Assembly: GCA_964016885.1 (NCBI GenBank)
Contig: OZ024743.1
Coordinates: 247,876,001-247,940,000 of the forward strand
From: Eledone cirrhosa
Lineage: Eukaryota
DNA length: 64,000 bases
Reading direction: 5' to 3'
Within the stretch, counting starts at the first letter, position 1. Each line of letters starts with the position of its first letter. The position numbers were made by a program, and so were the translations under genes. A model generated the notes under the pieces. That model was not told where the DNA came from. It ran no database searches and saw only the letters and a list, made by a program, of their open reading frames with translations. Positions 13,923-63,920 of the stretch are shown here, piece by piece.

Positions 13923-14081
13923 ATATTGTTATACTTTGGGAGGGTCATGTTGCTAATAAGAAACACACGCACCAGTTGATTTCACTTCAATTTAATTTAT
14001 TAAATATTTATAAATTTACAAATTTATAAATTTCTGGTTGGTTGGTTGGTTCCACAACCAGATAGTTGTTTATATATATAT

Positions 14082-14126
14082 AGTCATAGTTCTTTCGTCA
14101 CACACTCTGTGACCTCTTCAGTGACT
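14082..14126 (-). ncRNA. Type I minimal hammerhead ribozyme motif (family A)
   Basis: Reverse complement reads AGTCA-CTGAAGA-G-GTCACA gagtg TGTGAC-GAAA-GAAC-TA-TGACT. Confidence 0.8.
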
Positions 14127-14236
14127 GGGGATTTCGTTCTTCGTTTCTGTGTCTTTCCTTTCTTCTATCCTACGCCATTTTTCAATGGCGTAGAATAGAA
14201 GAAAGGAAAGACACAGAAACGAAGAACGAAATCCCC

Positions 14237-14281
14237 AGTCACTGAAGAGGTCACAGAGTGTGTGACGAAAGAACTATGACT
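14237..14281 (+). ncRNA. Type I minimal hammerhead ribozyme motif (family A)
   Basis: Stem I AGTCA/TGACT, core CTGAAGA 14242-14248, stem II GTCACA/TGTGAC, GAAA 14267-14270, minimal stem III, predicted cleavage after UA at 14276. Confidence 0.82.
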
Positions 14282-14497
14282 ATATATATATAAACAACTA
14301 TCTGGTTGTGGAACCAACCAACCAACCAGAAATTTATAAATTTGTAAATTTATAAATATTTAATAAATTAAATTGAAGTGAAAGCAACTGGTGCGTGTGT
14401 TTCTTATTGGCAACATGACCCTCCCAAAGTATAACAATATCGGTTTCAACACACGATTTCAGATAAAGAATCTTGCTAAACAAATTCAGAAACGAAA

Positions 14498-15995
14498 TGT
14501 ATATATATATATATATATATATACACATATATATATATATATATATATATGTGTATATATATATATATATATATATATGTATATATATGTATATATATAT
14601 AAATATATATGTATATATTTATATATATATATATATATATATATATGTATATATTTATATATATATATATATGTATATATATATATATATATATATATGT
14701 ATATATATATATATATATATATGTATATATATATATATATATATATATGTATATATATATATATATATATATATATATATATACATATATATATACATAT
14801 ATATATACATATATATATATATATATATATATATATATATACATATATATATATATATATATATATATATATATACATATATATACATATATATATATAT
14901 ATATATACATATATATATACATATATATATACATATATATATATATATATATATATATATATATATATACATATATATATATATATATATATATATACAT
15001 ATATATACATATATATATATATATATATATATATATATATATATATATATATATATATACATATATATATATATATATATATATATATATATATATATAT
15101 ACATGTATATATATATATATATATATATACATATATATATATATATATATACATATATATATATACATATATATATATATACATATATATACATATATAT
15201 ATATACATATATATATATATATATATATATATATATATATACATATATATATACATATATATATATACATATATATACATATATATATATACATATATAT
15301 ATATATATACATATATATATATATATATACATATATATACATATATATATATACATATATATACATATATATATATACATATATATATATATATACATAT
15401 ATATATATATATATATATACATATATATATATATATATATATACATATATATATATATATATATATACATATATATATATATATATATATATATATATAC
15501 ATATATATATATATATATATATACATATATATATATATATATATATATACATATATATATATATATATATATACATATATATATATATATATATATACAT
15601 ACATATATATATATATATATATATGTATATATATATATATATATATATATATATGTATATATATATATGTATATATATATATGTATATATATACATGTAT
15701 ATATATATATGTATATATATATGTATATATATATGTATATATGTATATATATATATGTATATATATATATGTATATATATATGTATATATATATATATGT
15801 ATATATATATATATGTATATATATATGTATATATATATATGTATATATATATATATGTATATATATATATATGTATATATATATATGTATATATATATAT
15901 GTATATATATATATGTATATATATATATGTATATATATATGTATATATATATATATATATATATATGTATATATATATGTATATATATATATATG
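14498..15995. repeat. (TA)n tract with polarity switches TATG>TACA>TATG
   Basis: G-interrupted to about 14750, C-interrupted about 14780-15605, then G-interrupted again. Confidence 0.95.
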
Positions 15996-16190
15996 TTTCG
16001 TTTCAGAGTGTGTGACGAAAGAACTATGACTATATATATATATAAACAACTATCTGGTTGTGGAACCAACCAACCAACCAGAAATTTATAAATTTGTAAA
16101 TTTATAAATATATATTAAATTAAATTGAAGTGAAAGCAACTGGTGCGTGTGTTTCTTATTGGCAACATGACCCTCCCAAAGTATAACAAT
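15996..16190 (+). mobile_element. Truncated family A HHR element copy
   Basis: Short inverted end TTTCGTTTC fused to AGAGTGTGTGACGAAAGAACTATGAC...CCCTCCCAAAGTATAACAAT; starts in the HHR stem II loop, so CTGAAGA is missing. Confidence 0.85.
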
Positions 16191-60500: not shown

Positions 60501-62388
60501 ATATATATATATATATATGTATATATATATATATATATATATATGTATATGTATATGTATTATATATATATGTATATATATATATATGTATATATATATA
60601 TATATGTATATATATATATATATGTATATATATATATATGTATATATATATATATGTATATATATATATATGTATATATATATATATATGTATATATATA
60701 TATATATGTATATATATATATATATGTATATATATATATATATGTATATATATATATATGTATATATATATATATGTATATATATATATATATGTATATA
60801 TATATATATGTATATATATATATATATGTATATATATATATATGTATATATATATATATGTATAAATATGTATATATATGTACATATATATATATGTATA
60901 TATATATATATATATATATGTATATATATATATATGTATATATATATATATATATGTATATATATATATATATGTATAAATATGTATATATATATATATA
61001 TATATATATATGTATATGTGTATATGTATATGTATATATATGTATATGTGTATATGTATATATATGTATATGTATATATATATATGTATATGTATATATA
61101 TGTATATATATATATGTATATGTATATATATGTATATGTAATATATATATGTATATGTATATATATATATGTATATATATATATATGTATATATGTATAT
61201 ATATATATATGTATATGTATATATATGTATATGTATATATATATATATGTATATATATGTATATGTATATATATATATATGTATATGTATATATATATAT
61301 ATATATATATATGTATATGTATATGTATATATATATGTATATATATATGTATATATATATATATATATATATATGTATATGTATATGTGTATATGTATAT
61401 GTATATATATATATATGTATATGTGTATATATATGTATATGTATATATATATATATATGTATATGTATATATATATATATGTATATGTGTATATGTATAT
61501 GTATATGTGTATATATATATATGTATATATATATATGTATATGTTTATATGTATATGTGTATATGTATATATATATATATATATATGTATATGTGTATAT
61601 GTATATGTGTATATGTATATATATATATATGTATATGTGTATATATATGTATATGTATATGTATATATATATATGTATATGTATATATATATATGTATAT
61701 GTATATGTGTATATATATGTATATGTATATATATATGTGTATATGTATATATATATATGTGTATATGTATATATATATATATATATGTATATATATATAT
61801 ATGTGTATATGTATATATATATATATATGTGTATATGTATATATATATATGTATATATATATATATGTATATGTATATATATATGTATATGTATATATAT
61901 ATATGTATATATATATATATGTATATATAGATATATGTATATGTATATATATATGTATATGTATATGTATATATATATGTATATGTATATATATATATGT
62001 ATATGTATATATATATATGTATATGTATATATATATATATGTATATGTATATATATATATATGTATATGTATATATATATATATGTATATGTATATATAT
62101 ATATATGTATGTGTATATATATATATGTATATGTATATATGTATATGTATATATATATATATGTATATGTATATATATATATATGTATATATGTATATGT
62201 ATATATATATATGTATATGTATATATATATATATGTATATATGTATATATGTATATATGTATATATGTATATATATATATATGTATATATATATATATGT
62301 ATATGTATATATATATATATGTATATGTATATATATATGTATATGTATATATATATGTATATATGTATATATATATATATATATATAC
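60501..62388. repeat. Compound (TA)n/(TATATG)n microsatellite
   Basis: Seen directly. Confidence 0.98.
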
Positions 62389-63092
62389 CTAAAGATCATA
62401 GTGAGAGAGACACAGGCAGACAGACGACAAAGAGGCACACACAGAGAGGCATACGCACATACAGAAGCACACGCATATACACACGCGCGCACACATATAT
62501 GTATGTGTATTGGGGAATATACTTTAGAATACATCTTGCCCTACATTCGTGCCTCAATGGAAAATAAAGAAATAACTAGTTTATATTCTCTAAGTATAAT
62601 GAAGAAATAATAAAACACGCAATAGTTTATTTCATTTTATTATCATTGTGATTACTTAAAAGAATTATCACTTATACAGACATATCAACTTTCTTATATG
62701 AATAGGCCACAGTTTATTGGAATTTACAGTCAATTTTCATTCATACACATACTGTAATTGGGCTTTGTATTAAAATGATTTCATGAAAATTATACGAAAT
62801 GTTGGCTGTCCAGTAGAAAAGAATAAACGATTCGTGAGCATCTTTCATATCAGTGACATATTTTAAAGATATTTCCTTTATTTATACCGGAGAGATATAC
62901 AGATATATAATTAAATATTGTTCGCATAAAGTCAATTAAAACACACACACACACACACACATTTTTATTGGTGCTCCGAAATAGCGATATACATATGAAT
63001 GTACACGCATCCCGTATATTATGAAATATACAATACACACACACACACACACACACACACACACACACACACACACACACACACACACACAC

Positions 63093-63260
63093 ATTTGGGG
63101 ATGGTCATGTTGCATACATTGCCAATAAAATCACACGCACAATTCGATTTTCACTTTATTAGTTATTAGCTAGTTAGTCAAAGTTCTTTAATCACACATT
63201 CTGTGACCTCCTCAATGACTATTTGTTTTCCTTTATGTCTCCTCTTCTTTCTGCTCTTAT
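63093..63260 (-). mobile_element. Diverged family A element with a dead HHR (63175-63221)
   Basis: GGTCATGTTGC..CCAATAA..CACACGCAC; reverse complement TAGTCA-TTGAGGA-G-GTCACA gaatg TGTGAT-TAAA-GAACTT-TGACTA; follows (CA)n. Confidence 0.75.
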
Positions 63261-63450
63261 TTTGTTTACTCCAGCTTATTTTCAGTTGTATCGATACTAA
63301 TAATATGTAGGTGCAACCAGATCGAAATCATCGTATATCGATTTAAATCCTTACTATATGCATAGGGTGAAAGAAGAAATTGTTTGCTTTAAACTTTTAA
63401 TCTGTGTTGATTATAAATATTTTCTCTACGGCTTTATATATATATATATA

Positions 63451-63676
63451 AGCAAAAGGGATATTTAATTTGTTGGTAATATATATATTTATAACTGATT
63501 CGAAGCACTCGACAGAAAAACTTAAACCCTTAAGATCTCCTTCCTGGATATGTCAATATTTATAAAACAAACTTTGTATTTTATCCGATGAGAGCGCACC
63601 AAAGTTTTGGTACCCTTGAAATATATATAATAGAATAAATATGGTTTTATAAATATAGTTTCCATTTATTAATATC
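63451..63676 (+). mobile_element. Family B element: inverted tail (about 63451-63516) fused to plus-strand body
   Basis: 63451-63516 is the reverse complement of about 38545-38620; body matches 38382-38523. Confidence 0.8.
63577..63637 (+). ncRNA. Hammerhead motif (family B) with core variant CCGATGA
   Basis: TATTTTAT-CCGATGA-GAGCGCACCAAA gt TTTGGTACCCTT-GAAA-TATATA-TA-ATAGAATA. Confidence 0.7.
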
Positions 63677-63854
63677 ATATATATATATATATATATATTT
63701 GGTGCGTTATGGTCCACCTGGTTCCTTACCACATTTCCTTCGTTATATATATATATATATATATATATATATATATACTGCCAAATCAACCTCACAAATG
63801 CAAGGTGATTGAAAGGTATGTCGTATCTATTTATTTATAAGACTGTTTATATTG

Positions 63855-63920
63855 TATTTTGTCTGAAGATGGCATAACATATTGTTAATATGATATCCCT
63901 GAAATATATATAACGAAATA
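63855..63920 (+). ncRNA. Hammerhead motif (family B)
   Basis: TATTTTGT-CTGAAGA-TGGCATAACATATT gtt AATATGATATCCCT-GAAA-TATATA-TA-ACGAAATA; compensatory G-C pair in stem I. Confidence 0.78.

Follow-up and report, generated by a model that had tools for sequence, protein, structure and literature searches.

The window examined here, a stretch of 64,000 nt of Eledone cirrhosa DNA (GCA_964016885.1, OZ024743.1 positions 247,876,001-247,940,000, forward strand), contains short islands that carry predicted hammerhead ribozymes (HHRs) and abut TA or CA repeats. The islands were assigned to families A to D with relatives B2, B3 and C3, and their arms end at one of two 3' sites, short (S) or long (L), as listed below by window position.

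11455..23406, no strand: impure (TA)n array, host to three family A insertions
13923..14181, minus: family A arm to S; outer end 13923, HHR 14082-14126
14184..14498, plus: family A arm to L; HHR 14237-14281 (predicted to cleave after 14276); ORF start ATG 14415; S 14436; tail 14437-14496
15997..16192, plus: family A stub; an inverted L end of ~9 nt, followed by an S-ending arm truncated within HHR stem II
19306..19881, no strand: family A head-to-head pair, exceptional in being L+L; HHR 19532-19576(-), mismatched in stem II
35359..35625, minus: family C (Hydra-type); S arm with HHR, 35359-35554(-), and tail-only L arm, 35555-35625(+)
35899..36218, plus: family B2, sister of B; inverted S arm and direct L arm, HHR 36007-36072
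37154..37525, plus: family B (Hydra-type); inverted S arm and direct L arm, with HHR at 37314-37380 and a hairpin, ACTC..GAGT, in the tail
37760..38618, plus: family C copy ending at L; carries ~600 bp of 3'UTR, and the HHR at 38444 is deleted
44483..44697, plus: family D; decayed minimal HHR at 44578, 3' end in (CA)n/(TA)n
44716..62387, no strand: impure (TA)n array, host to several stubs
48624..48671, plus: family A S end adjoining an assembly gap (N 48424-48623), absent from the first-pass annotation
53130..53403, plus: family B3 (Hydra-type); inverted L-tail stub, then an S-ending arm that holds HHR 53291-53361
63095..63255, minus: old, diverged A-like end (77% identity) adjoining (AC)n; decayed HHR at 63175
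63452..63689, plus: family C; tail-only inverted L arm and S-ending arm with HHR at 63577 (CCGATGA)
63800..64000, plus: subfamily C3; HHR 63855-63920; continues into the tail, where the window stops

Hammerhead motifs and element ends in the window

All 13 hammerhead sites proposed in the first-pass annotation were found where they had been placed. Six have an intact core and stems (14082(-), 14237(+), 36007, 37314, 53291 and 63855), three carry a single lesion (a stem II mismatch at 19532(-), a broken stem III palindrome at 35414(-) and CCGATGA at 63577) and four are decayed: 16006 is 5'-truncated within stem II and lacks CUGA, 38444 has lost its GAAA side, 44578 reads TTGATGA, and 63175(-) reads TTGAGGA and TAAA. 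The sequences of the window motifs show the type I core CUGANGA, GAAA and NUH together with three stems, and a motif scan predicted cleavage after 14276, 36064, 37372 and 53353, in agreement with the earlier prediction. A strict scan returned five perfect-core type I matches, compared with none in any of 40 local dinucleotide shuffles. When one mismatch was tolerated, there were seven matches against a shuffle mean of 0.25. One of the one-mismatch matches, 41127(-), is probably due to chance. An Rfam scan of the window contributed 150 of 1028 rows, all miRNA models on hairpins or TA repeats, with no hammerhead among those 150. An evenly spaced 600-kb sample of the genome contained 26 motifs (shuffles, 0), which extrapolates to intact motifs on the order of 100,000 per genome.

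The motifs share with the minimal type I HHRs of PLEs, as described in the available text of Cervera and de la Pena 2014 (PMC4209133), the type I architecture, a short palindromic helix III and massive genome-wide occurrence. A tiny palindromic stem III had been named as a hallmark of such ribozymes. Most families have it: in B, B2, C3 and B3 the palindrome is complete at 8/8 positions, but not in family A, in which stem III is AGAACU, palindromic at only 4/6 positions. Relative to the published motifs, the 8-nt palindrome of B and C permits 2 bp plus a tetraloop as a monomer, and family A has an A-A mismatch. Palindromes of the B type would predict better cleavage as dimers, most of all for 53291, whose stem III duplex is computed at -10.5 kcal/mol.

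Each of the 16 mapped 3' ends in the window adjoins TA/CA repeats, and in a random sample such flanks were present at 41/46 ends, compared with a background of 10%, bearing out the microsatellite enrichment noted from the sequence. The elements stand solo or head-to-head, and tandem HHR units are absent from the window. The inverted duplications reported earlier do exist as head-to-head arms; they are, however, pairs of independently truncated arms whose outer ends differ rather than symmetric fold-backs. The window copies are 5'-truncated ends lodged in (TA)n, dead on arrival.

Coding relatives elsewhere in the genome

The description of the elements as ORF-less is accurate inside the window, where no PLE ORF was matched among its own reading frames, but not for the families. 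Genomic relatives of A (14/16/19/63 kb), B (37.3), C (35.4/38.4/63.6/63.9) and B3 (53.3) run upstream into RT and/or GIY-YIG coding sequence. These own-genome searches used the best 40 matches per query and are biased to young copies. Among the matches listed, a GIY-YIG C-terminus lay at most 600 bp upstream at 24/29 family A loci, a Hydra-type ORF lay upstream in 10 of the 19 family C loci chosen by 3'UTR, and B2 and D had no ORF link. Full-length B has the order HHR-S-L-ORF, and B read-through copies are also present; B3 is attached to a Hydra-type endonuclease with CxCX5C; the family A segment includes the ORF start, at ATG 14415 in the window copy. Six-frame translations gave no support for an antisense ORF in the family C 3'UTR.

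A family A locus elsewhere (L033, near 173.64 Mb in G000:C3) has an open frame of 1268 aa (1257 counted from Met) that contains YVDD, a CX4CX2C linker and, at its C-terminus, GIY-YIG. Its RT-EN part matched RVT_1 weakly (E 2e-4, under the curated cut-off), and the predicted model of this part (pLDDT 91) had telomerase RTs as its best PDB structure matches (E 7e-9). Pfam returned 0 families for the full family A protein and nothing useful for the Hydra-type pieces, and a PDB sequence search gave no significant match. Because no GIY-YIG match came from Pfam, the GIY-YIG call in A, B, C and B3 rests on C-terminal motifs compared with Fig. S2 and S7 of PMC8557442.

The family B ORF contains YRDD, RWR, DKT and CxCX5C, with CNLC and CLH near its C-terminus. 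The CxCX5C linkers read CNCRNKPDC in B, CNCRIESNC in C and CNCPIRNKC in B3; in all three, CCHH is absent and one Cys lies within the GIY-YIG core. On these motifs, B, C and B3 are assigned to the Hydra clade of Penelope-like elements. As represented in the available text and figures of Craig et al. 2021 (PMC8557442), that clade, including Hydra-1_Obim, likewise has an RT plus C-terminal GIY-YIG, RWK-like and DKT motifs, the CxCX5C linker, C-terminal CxxC and CxH, an HHR, (TA)n insertion and an octopus host. B, C and B3 differ in having 0.9-3 kb 3'UTRs and an HHR (8-nt palindromic stem III, NUA site) unlike that of the Hydra-1_Obim HHR row, and they form several distinct families. B, B2, C and B3 are mutually related.

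Family A has a CX2-5CxxC linker, the CCHH residues and a DKG-like motif (DKS), as in the Nematis and Neptune rows of the same source (Fig. S2 and S7), which were compared by eye. Judged in this way, its compact linker and EN end are like those of the Nematis rows, and family A resembles Nematis. It differs from Nematis/Neptune in a long asparagine-rich N-terminal region, to which inserts described in PMC3846280 are similar.

Both A and B have the single ORF with a telomerase-like RT that characterizes EN+ Penelope-like elements. A pLTR with an HHR, partial tandems (at L034 and L041-L043), an inverted 5'-truncated arm and an optional tail were all observed. At the level of sequence, the predicted hammerheads are real motifs, and nearly all are broken-off ends of known Penelope-type elements. 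The first-pass annotation was right in describing type I hammerheads of the PLE kind, associated with TA tracts and with an RT+GIY-YIG protein, and wrong, for most sites, to call the elements non-autonomous and mobilized in trans, because A, B, C and B3 have coding masters. To count hammerheads in genomes like this one is, for the most part, to count dead PLE ends. Octopus PLEs are annotated in PMC8557442 and PMC13282606, and hammerheads in PLE pLTRs, the TA bias, inverted arms and the optional one-sided tail are all already published.

Ribozyme core, 5' ends and the RNA template

Hammerhead cleavage was considered as the source of the 5' ends and rejected: 0/113 ends lay within 4 nt of the predicted cleavage site and, among the matches listed, 0/30 B loci retrieved by post-cleavage sequence started at it. 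The starts closest to it lay at +5, in three B3 arms of which one sits at a locus edge, and at +6 and +7. The test by cleavage-site query covers B only, because the family A query downstream of the site returned no matches in the own-genome DNA search; a search with the 53291 element was equally empty, and in both cases the words were probably too common. In B and B3, the 5' ends cluster ~110-120 nt before the cleavage site, with 8/30 B loci at one spot among the matches listed. The inserted template appears to be uncleaved RNA, for which these copies provide genomic evidence.

Better conservation of the core than of the flanks, proposed earlier as a test, was observed in one class of change only. 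Changes acquired after insertion fell on the core and flanks alike (24/2325 and 391/30497; p=0.34), whereas columns with lineage-shared variants were absent from the core (0/44 versus 60/583; p=0.016). That the core is spared in lineage-shared variants alone implies selection on the master elements and not on these copies. In the masters, the hammerhead likely serves to process tandem transcripts, as a ribozyme aided by dimerization or by protein.

Two 3' ends and the origin of the head-to-head arms

The 3' ends were bimodal in every family, with S and L ~60-100 nt apart. ATAT directly follows S in A, B and C; it directly follows L in A and also in B, where the sequence is ATATATATA. Because the families are related, its occurrence at B, B2, C and B3 ends does not amount to several independent observations. 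Among untargeted head-to-head pairs, with ends called by BLAST, 31/34 were S+L, compared with an expectation of 50% (p=3e-7), and among targeted A/B pairs the figure was 34/37. The remaining three untargeted pairs were S+S or L+L; the window's own exception is the L+L pair at 19306-19881. Signature-based end calling gave 78/96 S+L but over-called S+S in family C, and was replaced by the BLAST count; divergent C3 tails, as at L178, are misread by it.

Most of the islands are 5'-truncated ends of coding PLEs in TA repeats, probably inserted by priming from both cut strands at two fixed RNA sites, with S and L likely marking where copying started on each cut DNA strand. The GIY-YIG domain would nick (TA)n on both strands, and each TA-ending primer would pair with an AU stretch at S or L of the element RNA. 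In family B this stretch lies just 5' of a small hairpin, which may position the enzyme. Synthesis of both cDNAs would as a rule end prematurely, in many cases at the foot of a hairpin lying 60-80 nt upstream of the HHR core, and the two ends would then be joined; the RNA being copied would be uncleaved, and the hammerhead would be maintained by selection in the masters. Alternatively, the ATAT at S and L could be where the endonuclease cuts the DNA of the element itself.

A close parallel is the Poseidon element PAc of Anolis. According to the available text of Frangieh et al. 2024 (PMC11167929), its tail is bounded by two internal sites at which the RT starts, extension takes place on both strands, and insertion still occurs with a mutated HHR. 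These three findings agree with the arrangement proposed here, and PAc is also alike in its AT-rich targets, in a pLTR that overlaps the ORF start and in having no ends at the HHR cleavage site. It differs in that PAc starts at AC-rich sites non-homologous to the target and without strand difference, whereas here the sites overlap the target in ATAT and S and L alternate. A young family A element, whose 1257-aa ORF is intact and whose two putative start sites are mapped exactly, makes the way in which PLEs build inverted ends testable with the assay of that work.

The same elements could have arisen from a single RNA priming event, the inverted arm being formed by self-priming (snap-back, as proposed in PMC3846280) or by endonuclease resolution of an intermediate, which trims the tail from one side (EN-mediated resolution is proposed in the available text of PMC8557442). 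Near-perfect palindromic junctions, such as 14181/14184, point this way, and the abutting S+L pairs with equal 5' ends (9/41) or a longer L arm (11/41) also fit. In 21/41 pairs, however, the S arm extends further 5' than the L arm and therefore cannot be a snap-back copy of it; in five of these the L arm is tail only. At L080, a tail-only L arm faces a 5-kb S arm. A single priming event is accordingly considered unlikely.

Quite improbable, too, is that the islands as a whole are non-autonomous, self-cleaving, retrozyme-like elements moved in trans by a PLE protein, although PLE-derived retrozymes are already published (PMC7229834; bioRxiv 10.64898/2026.07.22.740005, both in their available text) and the 5'-end cluster of B and B3 could equal a transcription start. 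Families A, B, C and B3 continue into ORFs of their own, and so are not non-coding; inversion junctions vary from copy to copy; and neither the 5' ends, none of which lies at the cleavage site, nor the post-insertion changes, which do not spare the core, favor it. Retrozymes, moreover, are defined in those sources as head-to-tail tandem repeats, unlike the solo or head-to-head elements of the window.

The suggestion that the elements generate TA tracts, through a telomerase-related RT that makes or lengthens them, is very improbable: nearly all ends adjoin TA runs, often of tens of bases, and the window is 44% alternating microsatellite compared with 6.7% in the sample, but ~107 (TA)8+ tracts per 100 kb are already there as targets, inspection revealed no fixed polarity of G-type versus C-type impurity relative to element ends, the tail of another element (the 59896-60499 family) also supplies TATG repeats, and a search for empty sites to pair with filled ones gave no case (the TA run lengths it gave at L ends are unreliable).

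In a programmed form of priming from both strands, there would be one AU site per nicked strand, each set by a downstream hairpin in the Hydra elements, and a single telomerase-like primer-alignment rule would account for the tail being one-sided, for the head-to-head arms and for the bias towards microsatellites. This form, with family D as a SINE-like HHR parasite of the machinery with its own promoter, is offered tentatively, as falling a little short of an even chance.

Only family D may be non-autonomous, as a candidate retrozyme or SINE-like PLE derivative. It is ~235 bp long; its 5' end is fixed, reading CCAAAATGGCTGAC in relatives, and its HHR is minimal. It resembles the short non-coding HHR units from PLE pLTRs that constitute metazoan non-LTR retrozymes (PMC7229834; bioRxiv 10.64898/2026.07.22.740005). 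Among the matches listed, no coding master was seen, the 5' motif was present at 32/45 distinct loci, and no two of these had common upstream sequence. Head-to-tail D units were observed at L247 and, among the matches listed, at no other locus.

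Hammerhead motifs and their parent elements

All 13 hammerhead motifs proposed in the first-pass annotation were located where it had placed them; six were intact, three carried a single lesion, and four were decayed. The type I hammerhead (HHR) core (CUGANGA/GAAA) is present in the intact copies, for which cleavage is predicted. A strict scan recovered five perfect-core type I matches in the window and none in 40 local shuffles. In a sample of 60 evenly spaced 10-kb stretches of the 3.0-Gb genome, 26 perfect-core motifs were found, spread over 15 stretches (none in eight shuffles), and extrapolation suggests a genome-wide total on the order of 100,000. 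The same scan gave seven in the window, which is thus ∼2.5-fold richer than the sample; microsatellites occupy 44% of the window versus 6.7% of the sample. The motif-bearing islands form the following families.

Family A: 13.9, 16.0, 19.3 and 48.6 kb, with an old copy at 63.1 kb
Family B: 37.3 kb
Family B2: 36.0 kb
Family B3: 53.3 kb
Family C: 35.4, 38.4, 63.6 and 63.9 kb
Family D: 44.6 kb, ∼235 bp, old copies with 82-88% identity

The C terminus of a GIY-YIG endonuclease (EN) lies no more than 600 bp upstream in 24 of 29 retrieved family A loci, among the matches listed. One locus (L033) contains a 1268-aa open frame that starts inside the pseudo-LTR (pLTR), so its first codons are present in the family A copies of the window. 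The RT-EN part has a confident predicted fold (pLDDT 91), with telomerase RTs as the best structural matches, and the linker CX4CX2C and CCHH residues are compatible with Neptune/Nematis, of which Nematis appears the nearer by eye. For one family, the nearest relative at the protein level comes from Octopus vulgaris (70% identity). An octopus protein annotated as a “dynein regulatory complex subunit 6-like” isoform (P0063) aligns with 21% of the family A RT-EN (79% identity), reflecting either exonisation or a gene-model error.

Family B is linked via a 2-3-kb UTR to RT and endonuclease, in the order HHR, S, hairpin, L, hairpin and ORF in full-length copies, where S and L are the short and long fixed 3′ ends. 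These copies carry RWR, DKT and CxCX5C, the defining features of the Hydra clade, into which family B would fit on these motifs. According to PMC8557442, this clade has HHRs, (TA)n insertion and an octopus member. Families C and B3 are attached to a B-type endonuclease; B2, a candidate sister of B, is alignable with it.

Several hairpins were observed. In full-length B (L272, L277 and L278), GCTC..GAGC after L is the counterpart of ACTC..GAGT after S, a compensatory change; the hairpin after L is decayed in four other loci (L283, L286, L291 and L294) and was recovered by MFE folding in some copies only. A further hairpin is seen in B, C and B3, upstream of the HHR core by 40-80 nt, and its 5′ base is a 5′-truncation hot spot; B and C have a GGGTATGTCA-like sequence in common on its 3′ side.

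The proposal that the elements are non-autonomous failed for A, B, B3 and C, which are joined to coding sequence, and may fit D alone. Among the matches listed, the 5′ end of D is fixed in 32 of 45 distinct loci, upstream flanks are unrelated between loci, and inverted arms are few; D may be non-autonomous or a run-off copy of a pLTR transcript. The sequence AAAATGGC, which we take to resemble a YY1 site, is present where D begins and at 14184-14192 in family A, where a perfect inversion junction sits.

Ribozyme conservation and 5′ ends

A palindromic stem III, as claimed initially, was seen in the Hydra-type families, where an 8-nt palindrome occurs as three different sequences with symmetry kept in each, but not in family A, where the stem is weak and mismatched. 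Such palindromes are expected for dimeric HHRs (PMC4209133), and the active monomer was the minimum-energy structure in none of five copies folded.

Whether the core is better conserved than its flanks depended on the class of variant. Across 212 copies, rare substitutions strike the core as often as elsewhere (p = 0.34), whereas lineage-shared variants spare it (0/44 columns versus 60/583 elsewhere, p = 0.016), a pattern pointing to selection on the coding parents (masters) and to dead copies. None of 113 5′ ends fell within 4 nt of the predicted cleavage site, nor did any of 30 retrieved with a family B query designed to catch such starts. This is consistent with HHR cleavage being dispensable for insertion, as reported in vitro (PMC11167929).

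Insertion ends, head-to-head pairs and TA tracts

The 3′ ends are bimodal in all families. A TA/CA repeat adjoins 41 of 46 mapped ends (an evenly spaced sample, with a few ends double-counted via two C references and some misses being chance matches) versus 10% of random positions, which bears out the proposed enrichment of microsatellite flanks.

After removal of twice-fetched loci, 106 head-to-head pairs remained, of which 34 had not been chosen by their own query. The latter comprised 31 S+L, two S+S and one L+L pairs, against an expectation of 50% S+L (p = 3e-7). In 41 abutting S+L pairs measured on one reference, the arm extending further 5′ was S in 21 cases and L in 11, with nine pairs equal. 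Snap-back copying of L cDNA cannot outrun its template, and the tail between S and L is absent from S cDNA; at least half of the pairs therefore need two templated starts. We infer that insertion proceeds by twin priming, with starts at two sites inside the element. Our search found no PLE (Penelope-like element) literature using this term, subscription journals being thinly covered. Endonuclease resolution is a published alternative source of the inverted arm (PMC8557442). Self-priming, also published (PMC3846280), would not account for the 21 longer S arms.

Past S, the element sequence reads on as ATAT in A, B and C; past L, it does so in A and B. This overlap, the abundance of TA tracts and the literature favour targeting of existing tracts. 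Less probably, the element generates the tracts itself; the search found no empty sites lacking the insertion that would tell the two apart. The TA arrays at 11455-23406 (12 kb) and 44716-62387 (18 kb) are impure and show higher-order periodicity, and their blocks have either G-type or C-type polarity; the second array contains an assembly gap (48424-48623).

Earlier publications already describe HHRs in pLTRs, their massive metazoan occurrence, the TA bias, the inverted arms and the one-sided tail (PMC8557442 and PMC4209133). For O. vulgaris, PMC13282606 annotates PLE families and leaves hammerheads unmentioned in its main text, and PMC8557442 was the sole relevant paper found on octopus and hammerheads. 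The phenomenon is real but mostly known, with candidate new families of known PLE clades; for the insertion mechanism, the S/L detail is the testable point.

Other sequences in the window

Family E: 36430-36557 and 63700-63743, with ∼20 other loci; TA-flanked, head-to-head, S and L ends
Family F: 53535-53661 and 55249-55356; 3′ ends of another hammerhead family
59896-60499: (CATA/TATG)n-tailed 3′ end of an abundant element; nine matches in the 600-kb sample
8478-8948 (period 47), 26990-27271 (period 46) and 41932-42092 (period 18): unrelated minisatellites

In family E, nearly all arms start no more than ∼10 nt from a single point (GTC|CAGAA); GAAAC is present and CUGANGA is absent upstream. 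This fixed 5′ end could be a genuine cleavage end. Relatives of family F (L027, L031 and L036) have the full motif with a palindromic ACTAGT stem III. The element at 59896-60499, presumably a LINE end, may seed G-containing TA arrays. A 55-bp island with a terminal hairpin lies within a TA array at 51334-51388, as the single copy among the fetched loci.
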